Assembly: GCA_026709815.1 (NCBI GenBank)
Contig: JAPOSH010000196.1
Span: forward strand, 1 to 52,116
Reading direction: 5' to 3'
Source of the DNA: a bacterium
GTDB lineage: Bacteria > Actinomycetota > Acidimicrobiia > Acidimicrobiales > Bin134
Length of the DNA: 52,116 nucleotides
The translations under genes and the position numbers were made by a program. Under the pieces are notes generated by a model. That model was not told where the DNA came from. It saw only the letters and a program-made list of their open reading frames with translations, and searched no databases. This document shows positions 23,733-47,249 of the stretch, piece by piece; within the stretch, counting starts at the first letter, position 1, and each line of letters opens with the position of its first letter.

Positions 23733-23805
23733 CACCCCCAACGGGATTCGAACCCGTGTTACCGCCTTGAAAGGGCGGCGTCCTAGGCCGCTGGACGATG
23801 GGGGC
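23733..23805 (-). tRNA. tRNA-Glu (anticodon UUC)
   Basis: The minus strand reads GCCCCCATCGTCCAGCGGCCTAGGACGCCGCCCTTTCAAGGCGGTAACACGGGTTCGAATCCCGTTGGGGGTG. This is a 73-nt cloverleaf with anticodon loop CTTTCAA and T-loop GGTTCGAATCC. CCA is not encoded. Confidence 0.93.
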
Positions 23806-25328: not shown

Positions 25329-25805
25329 CTACAGCTCCGTGGCCGATGCCTCCACCAGATGCTCCAATAGCCAGCCCAGGTACCAGTAGGCCGCCCGGGC
25401 CGCCGATTCGGGATCGGCGCCCTCCGCATCGTCGAACTCGTCGTCCTCGGAGACGTCCAGCCGGGTTCCCAGCACCAGCCGGATGTCGTTGACCGCGCCC
25501 ATCCACGCCGCGAGCTGCTCCCGGTCCAATACCGTGGCCTCGACCAGCTCGGTCACCGCGGCCAAACGAGACCTCCGTTTGGCCACCAGCTCGTCTCGCA
25601 CCATCTCCCGGAACTCGGCCTCGGCTTCGGGATCGTCGGGCCGAGCGGTGGGGAACAGCCGGATCAAGATCTCATCGCCGGGATCGTCGGCCAGCAGTCC
25701 CTCCAAATCGGCGACGATGGCCGCGAGCACCGCCCGCTCCTGCGCCGCCAGCTCCAGGCGAAAGGTGCCGTCCCCATTGGGTCTGATCGGCTGGCGGGGG
25801 GCCAT
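25329..25805 (-). CDS. DUF2017-family protein (ClpS-associated)
   Basis: The ATG at 25805 opens FRLELAAQERAVLAAIVADLEGLL...RLFPTA...EAEAEFREMVRDEL...WMGAVNDIRLVLGTRL, the DUF2017 pattern. The gene lies downstream of clpS, as in other Actinomycetota. Confidence 0.7.
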   Translation of the reverse strand: MAPRQPIRPNGDGTFRLELAAQERAVLAAIVADLEGLLADDPGDEILIRLFPTARPDDPEAEAEFREMVRDELVAKRRSRLAAVTELVEATVLDREQLAAWMGAVNDIRLVLGTRLDVSEDDEFDDAEGADPESAARAAYWYLGWLLEHLVEASATEL

Positions 25806-25866
25806 CAGGCTCTCGCCCTCGACGGGCGCCCAGAGGCCGCAGCGGGCCGGTCGGACGGCGCGGGCA

Positions 25867-26175
25867 TCAGTCGTCGTGCTCCATGGTGGCCCACAGACCG
25901 TGCTCGTGCAGCCGGAAGACATCCATTTCCGCCTTCTCCTTGGGGCCGTCCGACACCACCGCCCGCCCCTTGTGGTGGACGTCCAGCATGAGCCGGGTGG
26001 CCTTCTCCTTGCTGTAGCCGAACAGCTTCTGGAGCACGAAGGTCACATACGACATCAGGTTGATCGGGTCGTTCCACACGATCACCTTCCACGGCCGGTC
26101 GGCCCGAACGTCGACGGCGTCGTCGGACTCCAGTACTTCGCCGGGGGCGATCTCCACCGGAGCGGCGGGGGTCAT
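25867..26175 (-). CDS. clpS: ATP-dependent Clp protease adaptor ClpS
   Basis: [46 protein letters not shown] is the ClpS core. The ATG at 26175 overlaps the ctaA stop as ATGA. Confidence 0.92.
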
Positions 26176-27074
26176 GCCGGTACCGCCGGGGCGAACTCGG
26201 TCTCGGCCCGCATCAGCGGGCCTCTGGCGTTGAGCCAGAAGAACACGGTGGTAACCCACAGCCCGGCGGCGCCCGCGATGTGCGCGCCCACCAGCAAGAC
26301 CGGCACCCCGGTGAAGTACTGCACATAGCCGATCAGCCCTTGGGCCAGGGCCACCACCAGCATGGTCCGGCCCCACCACTGGACCTGCTCGGCGGCGCCC
26401 TGCTGACGCAGCCACCACACCGCACCGGACAACGCCAAAAGCAGCGCCACCACTGTGGCGCCGTGGATTCGGGCTACATCCCTCACCGCCACATCGATGC
26501 GCTCGGCATCCTCGTCGCCACTGTGGGGCCCCGCGCCGGTGACAACGGTGCCGGTGACGACCACCACCGAGGTGAGCGCCGCCACCGCGTTGCCCAGCCA
26601 ATGGGGGCGGCCCGCAGGGCGCCCGTCTTGCTCTGATGCCCGCCATAGCAGCACCACCGCGTTCCACAGCAGCACCATCGACAGCAAGAAGTGGCCGATC
26701 ACCAGCGCCGGGGGCAGTTCGTAGAGCACTACCAGGCCGCCCAGCACAATCTGGGCCAGGACCCCGGCCACCAAACCCCACGACAGCCACACCAGGTCGG
26801 CCCGGCGGGGCACCCGCCAGTGAGACCCCAGCACGGCGGCGATGACGATGGCCGATACCAGTCCGGTGATGAGCCGGTTGATGAACTCGATCATGGCGTG
26901 GGTCTCCAGCGGCGCCACCAGCTGATCGTTGTCGCACGCCGGCCAGTCAGGGCAGCCCAGCCCCGACCCGGTGAGCCGGACTGCGCCCCCGCTCACGATG
27001 ATCAAGGCCAGAAGGGCCAGTGCCCAGACCGTGATCTTGCGATAGGAGGCGGGGGAGACCCGGGGCTGGATCAC
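26172..27074 (-). CDS. ctaA: Heme A synthase (COX15/CtaA family)
   Basis: [19 protein letters not shown]...HAMIEFINR... with paired His-containing helices. The start is uncertain: GTG at 27074 is preferred, since the longest ORF reaches 27209 and would overlap ctaB. Confidence 0.85.
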
Positions 27075-27207
27075 GCCTGGAATTGTACGGGTCGCCCCCG
27101 CAAGACCGTTATCTGGGCCCGGCGATTTTGAAAGTCGACTGCCAGGGCGTCGGCGCCTTCTGGATACCTTGGCCTGCCCAGCGCCGAAACCGTACTCTGT
27201 GCTGGTC

Positions 27208-28110
27208 ATGGGTCTCGCCCAATTGTCTGCTCGCAGCCGCTCTCACACTGCTCGGACCTACATCGCTCTCACCAAGCCTCGCATCATCGAGCTGTTGCTG
27301 GTGACCACGGTGCCCACCATGGTGGTGGCCGACAGGGGCATCCCCTCGGTGTGGCTGATGGCGGCCACCGTGATCGGCGGCACCTTGGCCGCGGGCGGGG
27401 CCAACGCCATCAACATGTACGTCGATCGCGACATCGACCGGCTGATGGATCGCACCAAGCACCGCCCCCTGGTCACCGGGGAGATCGCCCCTCGCCGAGC
27501 GTTGGTATTCGCCATCGTCTTGGAGGCGGTGGCCTTCGCCTGGCTCTGGGGGTTCGTGAACCTGCTCAGCGCGGTGCTGGCGGTATCGGCCACCGCGTTC
27601 TACGTGTTCGTCTACACGTTGTGGCTCAAGCGCACCTCCACCCGCAACATCGTCATCGGCGGGGCCGCGGGCGCCGTCCCGGTCTTGGTGGGCTGGTCGG
27701 CGGTGACCAACAGCTTGGACTGGGCCCCCTTGGTGCTGTTCGGCGTCATCTTCTACTGGACCCCGCCCCATTTTTGGGCCCTGGCCATCCGCTATCGGGA
27801 CGACTACCGGGCGGCGAGCGTGCCGATGCTGCCCGCCGTGGCCAGCACCCGCACCACCGCGGTGCGGATGGTGGGCTACACCGTTGTGCTGTGGGGGCTG
27901 TCGGTGTTGTTCGGCGCGGTCGGCGGGATGGGGCTGGTGTACTTGGTGAGCGCCGCAGTGCTGGGCGCGGTGTTCTTGTTCTACGCCGTCCAAGTGCTGC
28001 GCACCCAGGCCGCGGCATCGGCTATGCGGCTGTTCTCCTACTCCATCACCTACATCACCCTCCTGTTTGCCGCGATGGCAGTCGACCAGGTGGTGCGCAC
28101 CGGTGTTTGA
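27208..28110 (+). CDS. ctaB: Protoheme IX farnesyltransferase (heme O synthase)
   Basis: YIALTKPRIIELLLVTT...GANAINMYVDRDIDRLMDRTKHRPLVTG...YWTPPHFWALA is the UbiA-family CtaB/CyoE signature. The start is 27208 or 27169. Confidence 0.92.
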   Translation: MGLAQLSARSRSHTARTYIALTKPRIIELLLVTTVPTMVVADRGIPSVWLMAATVIGGTLAAGGANAINMYVDRDIDRLMDRTKHRPLVTGEIAPRRALVFAIVLEAVAFAWLWGFVNLLSAVLAVSATAFYVFVYTLWLKRTSTRNIVIGGAAGAVPVLVGWSAVTNSLDWAPLVLFGVIFYWTPPHFWALAIRYRDDYRAASVPMLPAVASTRTTAVRMVGYTVVLWGLSVLFGAVGGMGLVYLVSAAVLGAVFLFYAVQVLRTQAAASAMRLFSYSITYITLLFAAMAVDQVVRTGV

Positions 28111-28218: not shown

Positions 28219-29922
28219 ATGACCCTCACCGAGACTAATCCACCCGCAGAAGCGGTCGCGGCCGGCGACGACTTGGGGCCACCAACAGGCGCAGTCGCGG
28301 CCGGTGACGACTTGAGCCCGGCCACCCGGGCATCGGTCCCCCAGTGGACGCCGCCGACCGGTTTGGCCCGAATTCTGAGTTCCGGCGACTATTTGACCGT
28401 CGGCCGGATGTATGTGGCGTTCTCCCTGCTCCTATCGGGGCTGGCCCTGGCCCTGGGGGTGTTGATCGGCATTGAGAAGGCCGATATCGACGGGGGCTTC
28501 GGAGTTTTCGCCAACTCCAACGAGCTCTTCCAGATGTTCGGCCTGTACCGGATCACGCTGATCCTGTGCGGGCTGGTTCCGCTGTTCTTAGGCCTGGCCA
28601 CCGTTGTGATCCCCCGGCAGCTCGGCGCTGGTTCGCTGGCCTTCCCCCGAGCCGCCGCCGCCGCGTTCTGGACTTGGCTGGTGGGATCCATCGCCCACAT
28701 CGCGGCCACCTTCTCCTACGGCGGTCTAGGCTCGATCGAGGCCGGCGCCGCCCGAGGCCAGTCGGTGGAGCTCACCGTTTTGTCGCTGGGCATGATCGGA
28801 CTGGGCTTGCTGGTGGGATCGGGTGTCGTCTTCACCACCCTGGTGACCCAGCGCCCCCCGGGCATGGATCTGCTCCAAATGCCGGCCTTCTCGTGGTCGA
28901 TGCTGGTGGCTGCCGGGGTGTGGCTGTTCTCTTTGCCGGTGCTGCTGGCCAACCTGACCATCTCCTGGGTGGATATGCGGGGGTCCGACGCCGTGGGCTT
29001 CGGCGCCGCCGAGGTGCCGTTCGAGATGGTGGCCTGGGCATTCGACGCCCCCCAGGTGTACGCATGGACCATCCCGCTTTTGGGCATCATCGCTGAGGTC
29101 TTCGCCGCCGCCCATCGCAGTGTCCCCAAACTGTTCGAGCCCATGGCCTTCATCGTGGGGGCCTTCGGGTTCTTGTCGTTCGGGGCCTGGGCGCAGAGCT
29201 TCTTCGACAGCGCCGATCCGCGGGCTGCCGATGCCCACGTCGTGACCGACGAGGTGCTGTTCACCGTGTTCGCCCTGGCGATCGCCCTGGCAGTGCTGGC
29301 CTACGGCGGATGGCTGGCGTTCAACGCCTACGCCGCCGGGCGGCGCCCCGAGATCACCCCGCAGTTCGCCTTGGCAGTCGTCTCCGGGGCTTTGCTGACC
29401 TTGGCCGCGGTGGCCGGCGTGCTGCGGGTGGCCGAGCCGGCGCTGGGGGTGCTGCGGGAGGCCGACGGCGATATCTGGCGGGGGTTTTTCGACGCCATGG
29501 ACGATCTGGAGGGCTCCAGCCTGGTCACCGGGATGATGAGCTTTGCGGTGCTGGGCGGGCTGCTGGCCGCGGTGGCCGGCCTCTTCCACTGGGCGCCGCG
29601 GCTGCTGGGCCGCCCCCTCAGCGCCCCTCTGGGGTTCCTGTCGGTGCTGCCGCTGGCCGGCGGGGCGATCCTCATCGGGGCGACCGATGCGCTGAGCGGT
29701 TTCTTCGACCAGCCGGCCCGGCCTTATGAAGCCGGGAACCCGCCGTATGGGCCCGGCCACTTCGATGAGATCGACGCCTTGGGCTTCGTGGAGGCCATGA
29801 ATGTGATCGGACTCATCGGCGCTATCGCCGTTTTGGGCGGTTTGGCCCTGGTGGCTGCGAACGCCGCCCGCGGCCTTGTCGGCATGCCGACGGCCGAGTC
29901 TGACCCGGGGGAGGACTCCTGA
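28219..29922 (+). CDS. Heme-copper oxidase subunit I-like membrane protein lacking all canonical heme and CuB ligands
   Basis: 567 aa, about 12 TM helices. It aligns by eye with the bona fide CtaD at 32771: PRQLGAGSLAFPRAAAAAFW vs LQIGARDVAFPRLNAFSFW, WAFDAPQVY vs WIFGHPEVY, GAWAQSFF vs GVWAHHMF, LVTGMMSFAVLGG...GLFHWAPR vs VVAHFHYVIFGG...GLHFWWPK. All ligand histidines are substituted (see findings). Confidence 0.8.
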   Translation: MTLTETNPPAEAVAAGDDLGPPTGAVAAGDDLSPATRASVPQWTPPTGLARILSSGDYLTVGRMYVAFSLLLSGLALALGVLIGIEKADIDGGFGVFANSNELFQMFGLYRITLILCGLVPLFLGLATVVIPRQLGAGSLAFPRAAAAAFWTWLVGSIAHIAATFSYGGLGSIEAGAARGQSVELTVLSLGMIGLGLLVGSGVVFTTLVTQRPPGMDLLQMPAFSWSMLVAAGVWLFSLPVLLANLTISWVDMRGSDAVGFGAAEVPFEMVAWAFDAPQVYAWTIPLLGIIAEVFAAAHRSVPKLFEPMAFIVGAFGFLSFGAWAQSFFDSADPRAADAHVVTDEVLFTVFALAIALAVLAYGGWLAFNAYAAGRRPEITPQFALAVVSGALLTLAAVAGVLRVAEPALGVLREADGDIWRGFFDAMDDLEGSSLVTGMMSFAVLGGLLAAVAGLFHWAPRLLGRPLSAPLGFLSVLPLAGGAILIGATDALSGFFDQPARPYEAGNPPYGPGHFDEIDALGFVEAMNVIGLIGAIAVLGGLALVAANAARGLVGMPTAESDPGEDS

Positions 29923-29983
29923 TGGGCGGGCGGCGCAGACTCGGGGCCGGTCAGGCCCGCAGGAGTCGGGGAGGGCGGCGGTA

Positions 29984-30580
29984 ATGGCCGACATCGTAGT
30001 GGGAGCGCCCCTGGCCGCACCCCCTTCTCGCCCACGCACTCTGTTGGTGGGCACGGTGTTCGGGACCGCGGCGTCGCTCATGTACTTCGCCGCGTTGCTC
30101 GGCGTGTACCTGCGGGAGCGGGCCGATGCGCTGTCCGGGGGCGGGGATTGGATCCCGTCGAGCGCCGACATTCAGCTGGCCCAGCCCACCGTGGCGGCGT
30201 GGACCATGCTCATGTCGGCAGTCACCATGCAGTGGGCGGTATACGCCATCGCCCGCGACGACCGGGCCCACGCCCTCATGGCCACCGCGCTGACCGCGCT
30301 GTTCGGCCTGTCGGTGGTGGTCATGACCTCGTTCCAGTACACCGAGATGGGCTTGGCGGCCGACGAGTCGGTGGCGGCCGTGTTGATCTACGCCATCTCG
30401 GGGTCGCACTTGGCCATGATCGCCGTCGGCCTGGTGTTCCTCTTGCTCATGGCGTTCCGGGCTCTGGCCAGCCAGTACAGCAGCCGTCAGACCGACGGGT
30501 TCGTGGCCGCGTCCATCTATTGGTATGCCGTTGTATTCGTCTATGTCGTCATCTGGACGGCGATTTTCGTGCTGAAGTAG
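29984..30580 (+). CDS. Heme-copper oxidase subunit III-like membrane protein (divergent)
   Basis: The ATG at 29984 follows GGGGAGGG. 198 aa, 5 TM helices. IYAISGSHLAMIAVG vs FYALTGFHGAHVTIG, and SIYWYAVVFVYVVIW vs GLYWHFVDIVWIVIF, in the canonical CtaE at 34806. Confidence 0.7.
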   Translation: MADIVVGAPLAAPPSRPRTLLVGTVFGTAASLMYFAALLGVYLRERADALSGGGDWIPSSADIQLAQPTVAAWTMLMSAVTMQWAVYAIARDDRAHALMATALTALFGLSVVVMTSFQYTEMGLAADESVAAVLIYAISGSHLAMIAVGLVFLLLMAFRALASQYSSRQTDGFVAASIYWYAVVFVYVVIWTAIFVLK

Positions 30581-30637: not shown

Positions 30638-31474
30638 GTGCTCACCCCGGGATTCCGCTTGTTCTTCGGCTTTGCCCTCGCCGCGGTGGCCTCGGCTGCC
30701 GTCTACGGGGTAGCCAGCGGCAGCGCAGGCGAGACCGAGTATTTCGCGGTGCTCAACGTGGAGACCTGGGTGGGCGTGCTCAGCCTGGGCTACAAGGGGG
30801 GCATCGGCGATCATGTCGGGTACGTGGCGCTGATGGCGTTCGCGGTGCTGTCGGCGTTGGTGGCGCTGTTCTTGGTGGCCTTCCGGGACGCGGACGCCGA
30901 GTCGGTGGGCGAACTGACCGGAGACGGCCGGATCCCCGAGCCCCAAGCCGACCTCGAGGCCAACTACTGGCCGGCGGTGGCCGCCTTCGGACTGGGGGCG
31001 ATGATCGTGGGCCTTGCCACCCACGCCACCATCTTCGTGATCGGCCTGGTGATCGTGGGCGCGGCGATTTTCGAGTGGATGCTGGCCGCTTGGGCCGACC
31101 GGGCCACTGCCGATCCGGTGGTCAATCGCAACCTGCGCAATCGCATCATGAGACCGGTGGAGTACCCGGTCACCGCCGCCCTCGGGGTGGCGGTGCTGGT
31201 TTTGGCCCTGTCGCGGGTGTTTTTGACCGTGTCCAAGTTCAGCGCCGTGATCGTGGCCGGTGTGGTGGCCACGGTGATTTTCCTCGTCGCGGTGGTATTC
31301 GCGGTGGCGCCCAAGATCAGCCGGTCGGCTATAGCCGCAACGGTGGCCCTGATGTGTGCCGGCGTCTTGATCGCGGGGGTGGTGACCGCGGCCGTGGGCT
31401 CGCGTGATTTCCACCACAAAGGACCGGTCTCAGAGCACGGTGAACATGCCGACGACCATGGAGGGTCCGAGTGA
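30638..31474 (+). CDS. Polytopic membrane protein of unknown function with a subunit III N-terminal-like two-helix module and a His/acidic tail
   Basis: GTG start, 278 aa, about 8 TM helices. NYWPAVAAFGLGAMIVGLATHATIFVIGLVIVGAAIFEWML aligns without gaps to SYWPIVLSGGILLVGYGLIYNLWLVAAGMVLLVGAMYGWIL in the CtaD C-terminal extension. The C-terminus is HHKGPVSEHGEHADDHGGSE. Confidence 0.6.
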   Translation: MLTPGFRLFFGFALAAVASAAVYGVASGSAGETEYFAVLNVETWVGVLSLGYKGGIGDHVGYVALMAFAVLSALVALFLVAFRDADAESVGELTGDGRIPEPQADLEANYWPAVAAFGLGAMIVGLATHATIFVIGLVIVGAAIFEWMLAAWADRATADPVVNRNLRNRIMRPVEYPVTAALGVAVLVLALSRVFLTVSKFSAVIVAGVVATVIFLVAVVFAVAPKISRSAIAATVALMCAGVLIAGVVTAAVGSRDFHHKGPVSEHGEHADDHGGSE

Positions 31475-31490
31475 TGGTCGAGACATCGAG

Positions 31491-32768
31491 ATGCGGCGTC
31501 CGATGAGCAGTCGGCCGAGAGCGCTGGTATGGCTGTCGAGCCTGTTGGTGATTGCCGGCACGGTGGCATTGATCGTGGTGGCCATCGTGGTCGACGACAA
31601 TCATCCGCTGTCCACCCTGTCTCCGGTCGGGCGCCAGGGCCGCGACATCGCCGCGCTCATCAACCCCATCTTCATCGTGGCCGGCGTGGTGTTCTTCCTG
31701 GTCCAGGGAGCGGTGCTGGCGTTGTGGTGGCGGTACCGGGTCTCTGGATCCGATGACGGCGATGGCGAGTTCGGGTACTACGAAGACGAGGAGTTCCCCG
31801 AGCAGGTCCACGGCAACAACCGCCTTGAGATCGCCTGGACCATTGTGCCGACCGTGCTGCTGGCCGTCATCTCGGTGTTCACCCTGGTGGCGCTGTTCGC
31901 CCTCGACGACGTGGAGGCCTCTGACGAGGAGCTGGCTGTCACGGTGATCGGCCAGCAGTGGTGGTGGGAGTATCAGTACCACTTGGACGGCGACACGTCC
32001 ACCCCGCCTGATTTCGTGACCGCCAACGAGCTGGTGATCCCCGTCGGAGTGGATGTGCCGCTCGACATCAAATCGCGCGACGTAATACACGCGTTCTGGA
32101 TACCCAAGCTCAACGGGAAGAGGGACGCGGTGCCGGGCCGTTCCCACGATTGGGTCATCCAATCGAACAAGACCGGCACCTTCCGGGGCCAGTGCACCGA
32201 GTTCTGCGGTTTGTCCCACGGCTATATGAAAATGGTGGCCGTGGTGCTCACCGCCGACGAGTTCGCCGAATGGCGGGACAATCAGATGAAGCCGGCCGAC
32301 GCTCCCGAGGAAGGCACAGCCGCTGCTGCCGGTTGGGAGAGCTTCAACCAGCAGTGTGCCAACTGCCATGTGGTCAACGGGCTCACCTCGGCTGCCACTC
32401 GAGGCGGCGACCCCTCCTCGCCGCCCGACGACTGGAGCATTTACGGAGCGTTCAACGGCGACAATGCCGGTCCGGTCCTCACCGAGGATTTGGTGGCCGG
32501 CGCCGCTCCCAACCTGACCCACCTCATGACTCGGAGCACGTTCGCCGGGTCGATATTCGACCTCTACCTCAATGCCGGAGCACACGTTCCCTACTTGGAT
32601 CTGTCCGAGCGGGCAACGCTCAATCGAGGCGAGTTGGAGTCCTGGATCTACAACGCCCCCGAGCGCAAGCCGGCCGCCGCCGACGAACTTCGGGGCATGC
32701 CCGCCCGTACCGGTCTGAGCCCCGTCGACATCGACAACATCGTTGCCTTCCTGTCCACCCTTGACTGA
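31491..32768 (+). CDS. ctaC: Cytochrome c oxidase subunit II with fused C-terminal cytochrome c domain (caa3-type)
   Basis: Two N-terminal TM helices, CuA site CTEFCGLSHGYM, then the heme c motif CANCH. The likely ATG is at 31491 (MRRPMSSRPRAL...). Confidence 0.92.
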   Translation: MRRPMSSRPRALVWLSSLLVIAGTVALIVVAIVVDDNHPLSTLSPVGRQGRDIAALINPIFIVAGVVFFLVQGAVLALWWRYRVSGSDDGDGEFGYYEDEEFPEQVHGNNRLEIAWTIVPTVLLAVISVFTLVALFALDDVEASDEELAVTVIGQQWWWEYQYHLDGDTSTPPDFVTANELVIPVGVDVPLDIKSRDVIHAFWIPKLNGKRDAVPGRSHDWVIQSNKTGTFRGQCTEFCGLSHGYMKMVAVVLTADEFAEWRDNQMKPADAPEEGTAAAAGWESFNQQCANCHVVNGLTSAATRGGDPSSPPDDWSIYGAFNGDNAGPVLTEDLVAGAAPNLTHLMTRSTFAGSIFDLYLNAGAHVPYLDLSERATLNRGELESWIYNAPERKPAAADELRGMPARTGLSPVDIDNIVAFLSTLD

Positions 32769-32770
32769 TT

Positions 32771-34801
32771 GTGATTGAGATGACCGTCGCCGATCGCACG
32801 ATCACCGCCCCCGAGGAGACTCTGGCGCTGCCCGCGGGTCCGGCCATCGCCCGCCGGCCCCTCGGCGTCTTCAGCCGCCCCCAGGGCAGCGAGGGCTGGC
32901 AGAGCTGGCTGTTCACCGTCGATCACAAGCGCATCGGCATCATGTACGGCGCCGCCGCGCTGTTCTTCTTCCTCGTCGGCGGCGCCGAAGCCCTGTTCAT
33001 CCGCCTCCAGCTCGCCGTTCCCAACGGCTCGGTCATCGGCGCCGGCACCTACAACGGCGTGTTCACCATGCACGGCGTGACCATGATCTTCCTCGTGGCC
33101 ATGCCCATGGCGGCCGCATTCGCCAACTACCTGCTTCCCCTTCAGATCGGGGCCCGAGACGTGGCCTTTCCCCGTCTCAACGCCTTCAGCTTCTGGTGCT
33201 TTTTGGCCGGCGGTCTGCTGCTCACCTCCTCAATGCTCATCGGGGGCTGGTTCCAGAACGTCCCCGATGGGGGTTGGTTCAACTACGCCCCCAACAGCGG
33301 TCTGCTCTTCTCCCCCCATAAGGGCATCGACTTCTACGCGGTGGGATTGCAGATAACCGGCATCGCCTCGCTGGTCAGCTCCATCAATCTGATCGTGACC
33401 GTGCTGAACATGCGGACACGGGGGATGAGCCTGTTCCGCATGCCGGTGCTCACCTGGATGCTGCTCATCACTCAGTTCCTTTTGCTGTTCGCCATCCCGG
33501 TCATCACCGTGGCCCTGTTCTTGTTGATGTTCGACCGGCTTTGGGATGCCAACTTCTTCAACGTGGCCGCCGGGGCCGATCCCCTCCTGTGGCAGCACCT
33601 GTTCTGGATTTTCGGCCACCCCGAGGTTTACATCCTGGTGCTGCCCGCATTCGGAATCGTCTCAGAGATCATTCCCACGTTCTCCCGCAAGCCGATCTTC
33701 GGCTACAACTTCATGGTCGCCTCCGGCATCGCCATCGGCTTCATGGGCTGGGGAGTGTGGGCCCATCACATGTTCACCTCCGGCGTGGGACCGCTGGCGG
33801 TGGCGGCGTTCTCGGTGTCCACCATGTTCATCGCCGTTCCCACCGGGGTGAAGGTTCTCAACTGGCTGGCCACCATGTACGGGGGCCGGCTGCGCTTCAC
33901 CACCCCGATGCTGTATGCCGTGGGCGTGGTGTCGATGTTCACCATCGGAGGGCTTTCGGGGGTGACGCATTCCATCGCCCCTTCCGACACCCAGCAGACC
34001 GACACCTATTACGTTGTGGCCCACTTCCACTATGTGATCTTCGGCGGGATCATCCTCGGCTTGTTCGGGGGCCTCCACTTCTGGTGGCCCAAGATATTCG
34101 GCTACATGCTGGACGAGGGCTGGGGCAAGGCGGCCTTTTGGGTCATCCTCATCGGCTTCAATTTGACGTTCGGCCCCATGCACATTCTCGGCTTGCAGGG
34201 GATGTCCCGGCGCATTGCCACCTATCGGGCCGATGAGGGCTTCGCCTTCTGGAACATGGTCGCCACCGTCGGGGCTTTCGTGATCGCCGCCGGTGTGGCC
34301 ATGCTGTTGTGGAACATCTACAAGAGCACCCGCGATTGGAAGCGGGCGGGGCGGCCCGACGTGGGGCCCGACCCGTGGGACGCCCGGAGCCTGGAGTGGA
34401 TGACCGCATCGCCTGCGCCCGAGCACAACTTCGACCGGGAGATCGAAGTCGAGGGCCAAGATGAGTTCTGGCATCGCAAGTACGGCCGAGACGAGAGCGG
34501 GCGGGTGGTGCGAGCCGCTACTGCCTCTGAGATCGCCCACGACGGCAGCAACACCAAAGTTCACCTGCCGTCGCCGTCGTACTGGCCCATCGTCTTGAGC
34601 GGGGGCATCCTGTTGGTGGGCTACGGCTTGATCTACAACCTGTGGCTGGTAGCGGCGGGAATGGTGCTGTTGGTGGGCGCCATGTACGGCTGGATCCTGG
34701 AGCCGGCCGACGACCCTGAGGCCGCCGGCCACCACGGGGAGCACGAAGACGGCCGCGATGACGGCGGCCGCGATGACGAGGAGGCTGTGACCGTTGGCTG
34801 A
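32771..34801 (+). CDS. ctaD: Cytochrome c oxidase subunit I with a C-terminal two-helix extension
   Basis: All canonical motifs are present: FTMHG, WIFGHPEVY, WAHHMF, VVAHFHYV. The extra C-terminal segment HLPSPSYWPIV... resembles the N-terminus of subunit III. The tail is acidic and His-rich. Confidence 0.95.
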   Translation: MIEMTVADRTITAPEETLALPAGPAIARRPLGVFSRPQGSEGWQSWLFTVDHKRIGIMYGAAALFFFLVGGAEALFIRLQLAVPNGSVIGAGTYNGVFTMHGVTMIFLVAMPMAAAFANYLLPLQIGARDVAFPRLNAFSFWCFLAGGLLLTSSMLIGGWFQNVPDGGWFNYAPNSGLLFSPHKGIDFYAVGLQITGIASLVSSINLIVTVLNMRTRGMSLFRMPVLTWMLLITQFLLLFAIPVITVALFLLMFDRLWDANFFNVAAGADPLLWQHLFWIFGHPEVYILVLPAFGIVSEIIPTFSRKPIFGYNFMVASGIAIGFMGWGVWAHHMFTSGVGPLAVAAFSVSTMFIAVPTGVKVLNWLATMYGGRLRFTTPMLYAVGVVSMFTIGGLSGVTHSIAPSDTQQTDTYYVVAHFHYVIFGGIILGLFGGLHFWWPKIFGYMLDEGWGKAAFWVILIGFNLTFGPMHILGLQGMSRRIATYRADEGFAFWNMVATVGAFVIAAGVAMLLWNIYKSTRDWKRAGRPDVGPDPWDARSLEWMTASPAPEHNFDREIEVEGQDEFWHRKYGRDESGRVVRAATASEIAHDGSNTKVHLPSPSYWPIVLSGGILLVGYGLIYNLWLVAAGMVLLVGAMYGWILEPADDPEAAGHHGEHEDGRDDGGRDDEEAVTVG

Positions 34802-34805
34802 CACC

Positions 34806-35417
34806 ATGGCCGCCGAGGCCGCCACTCATTCCGCGCCCCGCGAGGAGCACCGCACCAGCACCGGCATCTCCAACGAGAAGCTGGCCATGTGGGTGTTCCT
34901 GGGCTCGGAGTGCCTGCTGTTCGGCGGGCTCATCTCCACCTACATGTTCAACAAGGGCCGCATCGGCCCCGGCGATATCGGCCCCGCCGACGTATTCGAC
35001 ATCCCCTTCACCTCGGTCAGCTCGTTCGTGCTTTTGATGAGCTCGCTGACCATGGTGTTCGCGGTGTCGTCCATCGTCCGGGGCGATCTGCGGGGCAACC
35101 GGATCTGGCTGGCCACCACCGCTGCGCTGGGGGCCACCTTCGTGGCCGGGCAGGTGTACGAGTTCACCGCCTTCTACAGCGAGGGGCTCGGCTTCACCAC
35201 CAACCTGTTCGGCTCCTCCTTCTACGCGCTCACCGGTTTCCACGGCGCCCACGTCACCATCGGCATCATCATGCTCATGTCGCTGTTCGTGATGTCGCTG
35301 CGGGGCAACCTCGGGCCCGAGCGAGCCGAGAAGGTGGAGATCATCGGCTTGTACTGGCACTTCGTCGACATCGTCTGGATTGTGATCTTCACGATCGTGT
35401 ACCTCTTCCCGCAGTAG
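34806..35417 (+). CDS. ctaE: Cytochrome c oxidase subunit III (5-TM type)
   Basis: FYALTGFHGAHVTIG and GLYWHFVDIVW motifs. The start is ATG at 34806, or TTG at 34794 overlapping the ctaD stop. Confidence 0.9.
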   Translation: MAAEAATHSAPREEHRTSTGISNEKLAMWVFLGSECLLFGGLISTYMFNKGRIGPGDIGPADVFDIPFTSVSSFVLLMSSLTMVFAVSSIVRGDLRGNRIWLATTAALGATFVAGQVYEFTAFYSEGLGFTTNLFGSSFYALTGFHGAHVTIGIIMLMSLFVMSLRGNLGPERAEKVEIIGLYWHFVDIVWIVIFTIVYLFPQ

Positions 35418-35425
35418 GACTCGCA

Positions 35426-35776
35426 ATGGCCACCGTCACCCCCGATCCCCAAGACACGGCCCACGCCTCCGACGAGCACGCGTCGGGCGGCGGTCACGCC
35501 CATCCCACCGACTGGCTCTATGTGAAGGTGGCCATTGCTCTCGCCGTGCTCACCGCCTTCGAGGTCTTCACCTACTTCGAGTCGCTCCACGGGTGGGGCG
35601 ACACCGCCCTCATCATCATGCTGGTGCTGATGATGCTGGTGAAGTTCTTCTTAGTGGTGGCCTTCTTCATGCACCTGAAGTTCGACGCTCCGATCTTCTG
35701 GCGATTGTTCATGTTCGGGGTGGTCTTGGCCATGGCGGTGTACATGCTCATGTTGACCGCGTTCCGCTTCTGGTAG
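35426..35776 (+). CDS. ctaF: Cytochrome c oxidase subunit IV (prokaryotic COX4_pro/CtaF-like)
   Basis: 116 aa, 3 TM helices, with LVKFFLVVAFFMHLKFD typical of bacterial caa3/aa3 subunit IV. The N-terminus is His-rich. Confidence 0.8.
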   Translation: MATVTPDPQDTAHASDEHASGGGHAHPTDWLYVKVAIALAVLTAFEVFTYFESLHGWGDTALIIMLVLMMLVKFFLVVAFFMHLKFDAPIFWRLFMFGVVLAMAVYMLMLTAFRFW

Positions 35777-35783
35777 AGCTCTG

Positions 35784-36695
35784 ATGGCTTTTGCCGCCGA
35801 CACCGACATCTGGCGGTACCAGCCCCACGCAGAGGTGTGGGTCATATTGGCAGCCGCTGTCGCCATGGCTTGGTACACCGCCCGGGTCATCGCTCCCAAA
35901 GCTGCGCCCGGCGGACGGGCTCCGTTCGCCCGCCGCCACAAGCTGGCCTTCATCGGGGCGATGGCGGCGTTATGGGTGGCCAGCGACTGGCCGATGCACG
36001 ACATCTCCGAGGAGTACCTGTACTCGGTTCACATGATCCAGCACCTGCTCATCACCTTTGTGGTGCCCCCGCTGCTGTGGGCGGCGATTCCCGAGTGGCT
36101 GGCTCGGCTGATGTTCAGCGACGACGGCAGTGTGGGCGTGTGGGTGCGCCGGCTGGCTCGGCCGGTGGCGGCCGGGTTGGCGTTCAACTTCATGGTGGCG
36201 GTGAGCCACATCCCCTGGGTGGTCAACACCTCGGTGGAAAACGGCGCCCTGCACTACTTCGTGCATCTGCTGCTGGTGGCCTCGGCCATGGCGATGTGGC
36301 TGCCGGTGTGCGGCCCGGTTCCCGAGCTGCGCATGGGCGCTCCCGGCAAGATGGTCTACCTGTTCTTGATGTCGGTGGTGCCCACCGTGCCCGGCGGGTT
36401 CTTGACCTTCGCTCAGGGCGCGGTGTACAGCGCCTATGACCACCAGGTGCGGCTGTGGGGCATCGGCGTGCAGGCCGATCAGCAGGCCGCCGGGCTCATC
36501 ATGAAGCTGGTGGGCGGCATGTATCTCTGGGCGTGGATCGGAGTGCTGTTCTTCCGCTGGTCTGGCGCCCAACAGCAGGCCAACACCCGGATGCGGGTCG
36601 TGACCGCCGCGGCGCAGGGGCCAGCGGCCTCCGATGCCCGAGTGCTGGCCCCGTCTCAGTCCAACGGCGCTGGCTCGTCCAACGGATCGCAATGA
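35784..36695 (+). CDS. ctaG: Cytochrome c oxidase assembly factor CtaG (Caa3_CtaG family)
   Basis: Polytopic protein. WPMHDISEEYLYSVHMIQHLLITFVVPPLL matches the Bacillus-type CtaG family. Confidence 0.8.
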   Translation: MAFAADTDIWRYQPHAEVWVILAAAVAMAWYTARVIAPKAAPGGRAPFARRHKLAFIGAMAALWVASDWPMHDISEEYLYSVHMIQHLLITFVVPPLLWAAIPEWLARLMFSDDGSVGVWVRRLARPVAAGLAFNFMVAVSHIPWVVNTSVENGALHYFVHLLLVASAMAMWLPVCGPVPELRMGAPGKMVYLFLMSVVPTVPGGFLTFAQGAVYSAYDHQVRLWGIGVQADQQAAGLIMKLVGGMYLWAWIGVLFFRWSGAQQQANTRMRVVTAAAQGPAASDARVLAPSQSNGAGSSNGSQ

Positions 36696-39202: not shown

Positions 39203-40312
39203 TTATAACCCGAGTGCGCTGCCGCTGCGGGGCCGAAAGCGAATCCACAGCACGATGCCTGCGATCACCGCAGCCAGCGCCTCCCAGAGCACCGGCCACC
39301 GACCGGGCTCGGTGAACCAGTTGCCCATCCGCTCGGGGATATCGGCGATGGTCCGAAGAACAGGCAGCATCAGCAAGTCGCCCCGGTATTGGACTGCCTC
39401 TGACAAGGCGTATCCCACCGCAACCACCAGCGCGGCCGCCATCAGCCAGGGCCGGGGGATGCTGCGGCGGAACGACCACACCAGCGCGGCCAGCACCACG
39501 ATGGCCACAGCCAGGCCGAAGCGGTTGCCGCCCACGTCGATGATCCAGTTCTCCAATCGGGCCGACACTCGGGTGGAGGCCTCCACGAACGGGTTGGTGG
39601 CTTCGAAGTCGTTGCGCAAAAGGACTTGGACCTCCCACCAGCCGTAGAACCCCAGCACCACACCGGCCACCACCAGGAAACCGCCCGAGATCTTGTTGAT
39701 GTGGGGCAGCAGGCGGCGCATGTGGGTGGTGACCCCTGAGCGTCCCATGGCCACGGCGAGAGTCAAGAAGGTGATAACCAGCCCCATCCCCAGGGCGTAG
39801 GCCAAAAACCGCACCGTTCCCTCCCACACCCCGTCGGTGCTGAACGAGCCGCTCACGCTGCCGAAGAACACCGGGCTGGCGCATCCCAGCGACACCACTG
39901 CGTAAGACACTCCGAACAGGAACATGGAGACGAGGCCCTGGCTGTCGCCTCCCTTGGATAGCCGGGGCACGGAGATCTTGGGCTCGAAGCCGGCCAGCAT
40001 GGCGATTCCTAGCACCACCATGAGCCCGCTGATCGCCAGCGTGATCCATGGGCCTCGTTCGGCGATGGTGGAGGTGGAGATGAGCGACGAGGTGAGCGCG
40101 CCGATGATGCCGAAAAAGGCCACGAATCCAGCAGTGAGGGTGAGTCCGACCAGCAACCCGCGGAGGATGTTTCGCCCGGCATCGCCGGTCTGATCCGTGC
40201 CGCCGATACCCAGGAAATAAGCCAGGTAGGCCGGGAGCATGGCAAAGCCGCACGGGTTTACAGCCGCGACCAGGCCGGCGCCGAATGGAACGGCGAGATC
40301 AAGGTCGAACAC
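39203..40312 (-). CDS. ccdA: Cytochrome c biogenesis protein CcdA (DsbD-family thiol-disulfide transporter) with a C-terminal membrane extension
   Basis: GLVAAVNPCGFAMLPAYL and a second conserved Cys region (VVSLGCASPVF). 369 aa, longer than I would expect for a typical CcdA. Confidence 0.8.
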   Translation of the reverse strand: MFDLDLAVPFGAGLVAAVNPCGFAMLPAYLAYFLGIGGTDQTGDAGRNILRGLLVGLTLTAGFVAFFGIIGALTSSLISTSTIAERGPWITLAISGLMVVLGIAMLAGFEPKISVPRLSKGGDSQGLVSMFLFGVSYAVVSLGCASPVFFGSVSGSFSTDGVWEGTVRFLAYALGMGLVITFLTLAVAMGRSGVTTHMRRLLPHINKISGGFLVVAGVVLGFYGWWEVQVLLRNDFEATNPFVEASTRVSARLENWIIDVGGNRFGLAVAIVVLAALVWSFRRSIPRPWLMAAALVVAVGYALSEAVQYRGDLLMLPVLRTIADIPERMGNWFTEPGRWPVLWEALAAVIAGIVLWIRFRPRSGSALGL

Positions 40313-47176: not shown

Positions 47177-47249
47177 TAGGCCGCCTGGGACTCGAACCCA
47201 GCACCTTGAGATTAAAAGTCTCCTGCTCTACCTGATGAGCTAGCGGCCC
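47177..47249 (-). tRNA. tRNA-Lys (anticodon UUU)
   Basis: The minus strand reads GGGCCGCTAGCTCATCAGGTAGAGCAGGAGACTTTTAATCTCAAGGTGCTGGGTTCGAGTCCCAGGCGGCCTA. This is a 73-nt cloverleaf with anticodon loop CTTTTAA. Confidence 0.9.

Follow-up and report, generated by a model that had tools for sequence, protein, structure and literature searches.

The cta operon in the DNA analysed here, which specifies a cytochrome c oxidase of the caa3 type, contains a gene for a full-length paralogue of heme-copper oxidase subunit I in which all six histidine ligands and nearly all proton-channel residues have been replaced. The gene, which we call pI (pseudo-subunit I), occupies positions 28219-29922 of a stretch of 52,116 nucleotides from a member of the Acidimicrobiales (contig JAPOSH010000196.1; "the window" below refers to this whole stretch). 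Based on the sequence comparisons and structure predictions reported below, we are highly confident that pI is a maintained, non-catalytic paralogue of subunit I that is functionally tied to the caa3 oxidase. The more specific interpretation that we favor, namely that pI is a stable structural partner of this oxidase, is tentative, and we consider the case for it nearly evenly balanced.

Few enzymes of aerobic life are as conserved as heme-copper oxidase subunit I, and the six histidines that bind its hemes and copper are taken as its defining feature. Surveys of the superfamily usually discard sequences in which they are missing. The class Acidimicrobiia, to which the pI genes belong, inhabits oceans, sponges, soils and wastewater (Microthrix) in large numbers. 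A full-text literature search of incomplete coverage did not turn up any report on a subunit I family that is ligand-free or inactive or on an Acidimicrobiia counterpart, and pI relatives have only unspecific names in the databases, namely "cbb3-type cytochrome c oxidase subunit I", "heme/copper-type cytochrome/quinol oxidase subunit 1" or "hypothetical protein". A search of two protein clusters for a cultured carrier returned only metagenome-assembled genomes and metagenomes as sources. The ligand-free subunit I is not a stray sequence; it represents an old family under selection, accompanied by a matching degenerate subunit III and fixed in the oxidase operon of an entire bacterial class.

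The subunit I fold without its ligands and channels

The original prediction, made from the letters of the sequence alone, described the product of pI as a full-length subunit I paralogue alignable helix by helix with the genuine CtaD encoded 3 kb downstream, and profile, pairwise and structural comparisons all agree with this assignment. The protein matches the Pfam COX1 profile (PF00115) with 114 bits (E 9.2e-33, cut-off 34.8) over profile positions 2-328, and BLASTP aligns it to the genuine CtaD of the window (32771-34801) with 27% identity over 379 residues (E 3e-25). The AlphaFold2 model, for which 22 family members served as input, has a predicted local distance difference test score (pLDDT) of 79 and a predicted template modeling score (pTM) of 0.84. 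It consists of 12 long helices, as expected from the uninterrupted reading frame with 12 transmembrane (TM) segments that had been claimed, and in Foldseek comparisons the solved subunit I structures of mammals, Paracoccus, Rhodobacter, E. coli bo3 and mycobacteria could be overlaid with it at TM-scores of 0.72-0.80 over ~530 columns. By its COX1 profile match and its 12-helix fold, pI belongs, within the heme-copper oxidase superfamily, to subunit I. The ATG start is fixed by the N-terminus MTxTExxP, which is common to the whole family, and the G+C content at codon positions 1/2/3 (0.68/0.50/0.86) is like that of the neighboring genes, in line with the normal third-position bias noted earlier.

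Within the superfamily, the closest relatives are of the A family. Among solved structures the pI family profile scores best with mycobacterial CtaD (6adq_F, 262 bits), and the nearest NCBIfam model is CtaD/CoxA (TIGR02891), where pI reaches 130.5 bits versus an equivalog cut-off of 670.75, which the downstream CtaD passes with 684 bits. Membership among cbb3 oxidases, nitric oxide reductases or quinol oxidases was considered and ruled out, the best profile matches being to the A family and actinobacterial CtaD; the label "cbb3-type" on pI relatives is a generic domain name. Judged by sequence and predicted fold, pI is a membrane-embedded, folded protein that is paralogous to A-family oxidase subunit I and free of heme and copper.

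A tandem duplication of 39 bp is found at 28252-28329, within the disordered N-terminus of pI, where it encodes AVAAGDDLGPPTG / AVAAGDDLSPATR. It explains 13 of the residues by which the protein exceeds the 554-residue form present in many close relatives (others have 547 residues). Tandem Repeats Finder, run on the window, did not report this duplication.

None of the six ligand positions holds a histidine in pI; in the family alignments they are occupied by Y110, A277, Q326, S327, M439 and S441. In helix 2, the heme a histidine (FTMHG in CtaD) aligns with Y110, as had been predicted by eye; pairwise BLAST places F108 there instead, which is not a histidine either, and relatives that keep the histidine read FSLHQ or FTLHG at this site. 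In helix 6 (WIFGHPEVY in CtaD), the CuB histidine is replaced by A277 and the gating glutamate by Q279 while the cross-link tyrosine is kept as Y281, and in helix 7 the CuB histidine pair (WAHHMF in CtaD) is replaced by Q326 and S327, the former being glutamine in 83% of the family; both sites read as originally proposed. For helix 10 (VVAHFHYV in CtaD), the claimed loss of both histidines stands, with none in either register, but the replacing residues had been given as G438 and M440, one position off: the family alignments place M439 at the heme a3 site and S441 at the heme a site. The two arginines that hold the heme propionates have been lost as well.

The loss extends to the proton channels. 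At the D-channel entrance (ARDVAFPRLN in CtaD), the aspartate and the asparagine are replaced by S139 and A146, again as predicted, and nearly all of the equivalents of the D-channel residues N121, D132, N139, S142, S197, S200 and N207 are replaced, mostly by apolar residues, as are the threonine and lysine of the K channel. Among the channel residues tested, only the tyrosine (Y281) and the serine equivalent to S201 are kept. These losses hold for the protein of the window and across the pI family. The fold-defining residues, in contrast, are retained as claimed: they are invariant in the family, and AFPR, W273 and Y281 are present in the window protein.

The protein consequently falls outside the catalytic heme-copper oxidases and nitric oxide reductases, which are recognized by the six histidines, and also outside the proton-pumping A family, given its TIGR02891 score and the family-wide replacement of nearly all channel residues. 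Nor does it have a cognate subunit II: the cluster contains a single ctaC, located beside the genuine ctaD, and the outer loops of pI are relaxed. As far as can be judged from these residues, the known mechanism of O2 reduction and proton pumping is not available to pI. Labelling pI a "cbb3-type cytochrome c oxidase subunit I" inflates the number of oxidases in genomes that carry it, and metabolic reconstructions of Acidimicrobiia should not count the gene as a second terminal oxidase.

We also considered whether the family has acquired other ligands. In the alignment of 245 members, the only column with histidine in more than 50% of sequences is that of the cytoplasmic DHK motif, where the window protein has tyrosine; an alternative conserved ligand set is ruled out by this family-wide histidine scan (n=245). 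A residual redox protein that holds heme on unconventional ligands (Tyr110, Met439/440) and transfers electrons is in our estimation very improbable. Y110 and the two methionines do occupy or flank former ligand positions, and 20 of the 245 relatives keep both low-spin heme histidines, which means that some members may still bind heme. However, the candidate ligands are not conserved (Y/F/S/G/A/V in helix 2; M/V/L/Q and N/Q/D/S in helix 10), the propionate-binding arginines are gone, and such a heme would have no subunit II partner as electron donor.

Spread, selection and constraint in the pI family

A protein search retrieved 245 pI relatives: those from Candidatus Poriferisocius and further Acidimicrobiia associated with sponges or the sea are 63-99% identical to pI, and those from other Acidimicrobiales 34-42%. 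A scan of one genome per species found a relative in at least 587 genomes; among the matches listed (80), all are from Acidimicrobiia, Acidimicrobiales (including Ca. Microthrix and Sva0996), or unclassified Actinomycetota or bacteria. Run exhaustively against 1.8 billion representative sequences, a profile search yielded 644 proteins with E<=1e-30; the clusters (at 50% identity) that scored above 279 bits number more than 150. Full-length matches occur in 82 genome loci, no frameshift or internal stop was noticed in the loci examined, and the orthologues stay intact across order-level divergence, where CtaD is ~70% and pI ~35% identical.

Selection was measured as the median pairwise ratio of nonsynonymous to synonymous substitution rates (dN/dS; Nei-Gojobori method) in the Poriferisocius clade, over 559 pairs in the case of pI. 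The value for pI, 0.18, falls inside the range of its neighbors (0.11-0.185; Table 1). A decaying pseudogene or an annotation artefact without function could be suspected where all catalytic residues are lost and divergence is the highest in the cluster. Yet the gene is intact in the loci examined, has relatives in hundreds of species, evolves under the purifying selection just described, keeps invariant fold-defining residues and normal codon-position G+C content, and yields a confident fold prediction. As far as sequence data allow, we reject the pseudogene explanation and give it almost no credence, and the view that pI is a maintained, non-catalytic protein, put forward in the original prediction, is borne out.

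The distribution of the ligands within the family indicates how they were lost. No histidine is present at any of the six sites in 187 of the 245 members. Both low-spin heme histidines are kept in the 20 relatives mentioned above (~8%), for example P0131 (L083:9001-10722) and P0244 (L084:9001-10677), whose loci share the synteny of the pI cluster, and not one of the 245 has three or more of the four histidines of the binuclear centre. These counts fit a stepwise loss of cofactors. The best explanation for the pair formed by pI and the adjacent pseudo-subunit III gene (pIII; see below) is an old duplication of actinobacterial-type ctaD and ctaE in the Acidimicrobiia lineage. The pattern of retained residues suggests that the binuclear centre was lost first, soon after the duplication, and the low-spin heme site later and repeatedly, in most lineages including that of the window. 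The bis-histidine members without a binuclear centre may be single-heme proteins and intermediates in this process. Relatives that keep only the low-spin heme site offer a natural series for the study of stepwise cofactor loss in a membrane protein.

The constraint along the protein was assessed by comparing per-column entropy between pI and CtaD from the same 79 loci. In the N-terminal segment, helix 3, loop 4-5, helix 5 and helix 12, pI is conserved as much as CtaD. Its most relaxed parts are helices 7-10 and loops 6-7, 9-10, 7-8 and 5-6, three of which (5-6, 7-8 and 9-10) are outer loops. In real oxidases, the binuclear centre is enclosed by helices 7-10, the outer loops are covered by the subunit II domain, and helices 3-6 make up the cofactor-free third of subunit I, on its subunit III side. 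Conserved helices 3 and 5 combined with relaxed helices 7-10 and outer loops fit a body that keeps the subunit III side and has neither an active site nor subunit II.

A different function on the old scaffold is suggested by another feature of the alignment, namely a set of conserved polar residues specific to the pI family: Q326, the glutamine at the gating-glutamate position, Q105, E86 and R63. In most members, three glutamines stand in for histidine, glutamate and histidine around the former active site. Together with pIII, the subunit I scaffold, its heme pockets empty or refilled, could have taken on a new function as a channel, a transporter, a conduit for ions, gas or lipid, or a sensor, possibly without any cofactor. 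The pair would then not be inert ballast but a functional device of its own, only co-regulated with respiration, although a sensor may gate or position the oxidase. Strong purifying selection without any catalytic residue speaks for such a function as well. On the other hand, the canonical proton-path residues have turned apolar, the former active-site helices are the least constrained, which would be unexpected if a new site had formed there, and pI was never found away from the cta operon in the loci retrieved, nearly all of which were chosen via pI or the adjacent ctaD. Overall, we regard this possibility as distinctly unlikely.

Gene cluster, pseudo-subunit III and orf278

The features of the cluster are listed in Table 1. 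The original prediction placed pI at the head of the oxidase locus; this was incorrect, as pI lies inside the cta operon, between ctaB and ctaC. The order ctaA (opposite strand), ctaB, pI, pIII, orf278, ctaC, ctaD, ctaE, the COX4_pro gene and ctaG is identical, contig ends allowed for, in all 82 genome loci, in two remote loci and in ~39 metagenome loci found via CtaD. In relatives, the stop of pI overlaps the start of pIII and the stop of orf278 overlaps the start of ctaC. In the window, the gaps between the cluster genes are all short. The ctaC start is uncertain (31446-31491) and lies at the orf278 stop or at most 17 nt from it. A promoter and terminator scan of the window showed no intergenic signal or terminator-like site. 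Between the pI stop and the pIII start lies a 61-nt G+C-rich spacer (29923-29983), where close relatives have 3-12 nt and remote ones an overlap.

Table 1. Genes of the cta cluster, sequence motifs of pI, and orf278-like genes in related clusters (dN/dS as defined in the text)
Feature	Sequence	Coordinates	Strand	Description	dN/dS
ctaA	window	26172-27209	-	heme A synthase; divergent from ctaB	0.16
ctaB	window	27169-28110	+	heme O synthase, UbiA family; directly upstream of pI	
pI	window	28219-29922	+	pseudo-subunit I; 567 aa, 12-TM paralogue of heme-copper oxidase subunit I, metal ligands and proton channels lacking	0.18
FGLYR (pI residues 107-111)	window	28537-28551	+	helix 2 heme a His site, here Y110	
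AGSLAFPRAA (pI residues 137-146)	window	28627-28656	+	helix 2-3 loop; AFPR fold motif kept	
WAFDAPQVY (pI residues 273-281)	window	29035-29061	+	helix 6; W273 and Y281 kept	
WAQSFF (pI residues 324-329)	window	29188-29205	+	helix 7, former CuB His pair	
LVTGMMSF (pI residues 435-442)	window	29521-29544	+	helix 10, former heme a3 and heme a His	
pIII	window	29984-30580	+	pseudo-subunit III; 198 aa, 5-TM CtaE paralogue with degenerate motifs	0.14
orf278	window	30638-31474	+	278 aa membrane protein, ~7 predicted helices, no Pfam family	0.13
ctaC	window	31491-32768	+	genuine subunit II with fused cytochrome c domain (caa3 type)	0.185
ctaD	window	32771-34801	+	genuine subunit I, all ligands, fused CtaF-like C-terminal hairpin; Pfam COX1 515 bits, plus PF12270	0.11
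ctaE	window	34794-35417	+	genuine subunit III, 5 TM	
COX4_pro gene	window	35426-35776	+	small subunit IV, COX4_pro type (ctaF of caa3 oxidases); PF03626, E 4.6e-10	
ctaG	window	35784-36695	+	Caa3_CtaG assembly factor	
orf278-like gene after ctaG	L090	13632-14672			
orf278-like gene after ctaG	L093	9656-10642			
orf278-like gene after ctaG	L096	13635-14279			
orf278-like gene after ctaG	L098	3762-4814			
orf278-like gene after ctaG	L126	9447-10799			
orf278-like gene after ctaG	L108	9265-10050			
orf278-like gene after ctaG	L095	4577-6238			

The gene directly 3' of pI is pIII in every locus long enough to show it. Its product belongs to the COX3 family of Pfam (PF00510; E 5.5e-13, 49.8 bits versus a cut-off of 23.8) and scores 74.6 bits with the NCBIfam model aa3_CtaE_Actin, below the cut-off of 190. 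With the genuine CtaE it shares 25% identity (E 8e-15), and the WHFVD motif of the latter is changed to WYAVV.

The third gene of the group, orf278, is named "hypothetical protein" throughout the databases, and what connects it to known subunits is profile-profile and hidden Markov model (HMM) evidence only, which points to CtaF. In an hhalign comparison, its residues 83-151 match the C-terminal two-helix extension of CtaD (probability 94.7%, E 6e-8), which Pfam names Cyt_c_ox_IV (PF12270), i.e., CtaF, and the orf278 family HMM matches CtaD open reading frames (ORFs) with E values of 2e-7 to 8e-4. Against PF12270 itself, orf278 scores 9.4 bits (E 1.5), and two of 20 orthologues reach E ~4e-4, all being below the cut-off of 26.9 bits. 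The AlphaFold model of orf278 is of low confidence (pLDDT 61); its top two Foldseek matches, which are not significant, are chains of 139 and 143 residues from the M. tuberculosis and C. glutamicum bcc-aa3 complexes, and a profile search of the Protein Data Bank found no match. In mycobacteria, CtaE and CtaF together make up the canonical subunit III, CtaF providing helices 1-2 (PMC8361435). On this basis pI, pIII and the CtaF-like part of orf278 would mirror a core of subunits I and III without subunit II.

Seven related cta clusters without pI and pIII carry an orf278-like gene directly after ctaG (E 3e-7 to 2.5e-16; Table 1). This weakens the idea of orf278 as a strict third member of a shadow module. 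The orf278 family reaches beyond the clusters with the pI/pIII pair, and its members may have a general accessory or assembly function in oxidases of this type.

Some further features of the cluster and its surroundings were noted. The C-terminus of orf278 (31400-31474) forms a histidine- and acid-rich tail, HHKGPVSEHGEHADDHGGSE, whose composition is conserved among orthologues, and CtaD ends (~34720-34801) in a long extension rich in His, Asp and Glu that is present in clusters with pI and pIII and lacking in those without them; metal binding by these tails is possible. The listed GTG start of ctaD (32771-32780) gives a protein beginning MIEMTVAD..., and the orthologous CtaD proteins and pI begin MT...E.P; the true start is probably the ATG at 32780, with an N-terminal motif common to both paralogues. 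In two relatives, a thioredoxin/AhpC-TSA-like gene lies between the orf278 homologue and ctaC (L084:12338-12904 and L087:8285-8662), which points to a possible connection with the maturation of CuA or heme c. A ClpS - DUF2017 pair adjoins ctaA in the remote loci L002, L083 and L084. The window ORFs 25329-25922 and 25867-26937, both on the minus strand, resemble this pair, with a ClpS-like sequence present. A DsbD_TM/CcdA-like membrane protein of the thiol-reduction pathway of cytochrome c biogenesis is encoded at 39203-40312 (minus strand), ~2.5 kb past the cta cluster. The only Rfam matches in the window are two tRNA genes on the minus strand (23733-23805 and 47177-47249).

Possible role and comparison with known systems

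According to the interpretation that we favor, pI would pair with the adjacent pIII through helices 3 and 5, a face that is as conserved as in real CtaD. The resulting redox-silent I'/III' body would be made from the operon shared with CtaC, CtaD, CtaE and CtaF and would bind to the active caa3 oxidase, serving as its dimer-like counterpart, stabilising it, or providing an adaptor for an electron-donating complex. The region of subunit III is the docking surface for the partner complex in actinobacterial III2IV2 supercomplexes (CtaE/CtaF in Mycobacterium) as well as in supercomplexes of ACIII with caa3 oxidase, where subunit III has five helices (PMC8361435). The original prediction had proposed a structural, assembly or regulatory subunit. 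Its non-catalytic part is supported by the ligand and selection data above, and none of the outcomes that it had named as refuting was observed (conserved histidines at the ligand positions of a profile alignment, no significant match to the subunit I family, or orthologues with frameshifts or neutral evolution); for the specific role, the stable partnership is the reading we infer.

The main rival, which we consider somewhat unlikely, is that the I'/III' body, with or without orf278, serves as a transient chaperone or placeholder in caa3 biogenesis and does not remain in the mature enzyme; a possible task would be to retain CtaC, CtaE or lipids until hemylated CtaD is available. The location of pI among biogenesis genes (ctaA and ctaB upstream, ctaG downstream), the thioredoxin-like gene in L084 and L087, the orf278-like gene right after ctaG in clusters without pI and pIII, and the rapid sequence evolution of pI, which is common for assembly factors, are all in keeping with such a role. 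However, pI contains no conserved set of His, Cys or Met to hold heme or copper, its outer-face loops, which in real oxidases lie under the subunit II domain, are its least conserved parts, related oxidases assemble without pI and pIII, and a 12-helix protein with a 5-helix partner would be a costly chaperone.

Several observations also weigh against a stable partnership. About 13 related cta clusters, with CtaD 56-67% identical, contain neither pI nor pIII, so this oxidase type does not need them in principle; on this evidence the pI/pIII pair is a lineage-specific addition and not a requirement of the enzyme type. Operon membership cannot separate a subunit from an assembly factor, because ctaA, ctaB and ctaG are in the same cluster. 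Furthermore, pI is the fastest-evolving gene of the cluster, with 35-40% identity where ctaD has 70-75% (pIII has 50-55% and orf278 and ctaC ~50% in the same comparison), and the genes at the pI position in remote metagenome loci are more degenerate, some without the helix 6 tryptophan. The fast divergence and the loss of this tryptophan fit loose constraint better than a tight stoichiometric interface.

Should pI nevertheless prove to be stably associated with the active enzyme, it would be, to our knowledge, the first "dead" paralogue of a catalytic subunit built into a terminal oxidase, with consequences for our view of oxidase dimerisation and of docking into supercomplexes.

Among characterized proteins, pI is most similar to the CtaD of actinobacterial aa3 oxidases (Mycobacterium smegmatis, 6ADQ chain F), with which it shares the 12-helix fold (TM-score ~0.7) and the location in a cta operon. 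Motifs common to the pI family and CtaD include DHK, PLQxGA, AFPR, RxxGM...PxFxW, DR, W..F..P.V(Y/F) and WxPK, and the C-terminal DPWxGHTLEW...PPP..NF is common to CtaD and most pI relatives. Unlike CtaD, pI has neither the six histidines, the gating glutamate and the arginine pair nor a D or K channel or a subunit II of its own, and it evolves approximately twice as fast. Its neighbors recall actinobacterial CtaE and CtaF: pIII is a 5-TM homologue of CtaE, although without the canonical motifs, and orf278 has a CtaF-like hairpin but differs from CtaF in its three extra helices, its His-rich tail, its PF12270 score below the cut-off, and its occurrence in clusters without pI and pIII.

Two comparisons outside the cytochrome c oxidases are instructive. 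NorE is a subunit-III-like, cofactor-free accessory protein of nitric oxide reductase operons, and pI resembles it in being a cofactor-free paralogue of an oxidase subunit that is kept in an operon of the heme-copper superfamily. However, NorE derives from subunit III, which never carried a redox metal, whereas in pI the catalytic subunit itself became cofactor-free. Duplicates of catalytic subunits that are kept as structural or scaffold partners are also represented by the alpha subunit of F1-ATPase (relative to beta) and by NifEN (relative to NifDK). Both of these retain ligand or nucleotide binding and pI has no recognisable binding site; the resemblance is one of analogy only.

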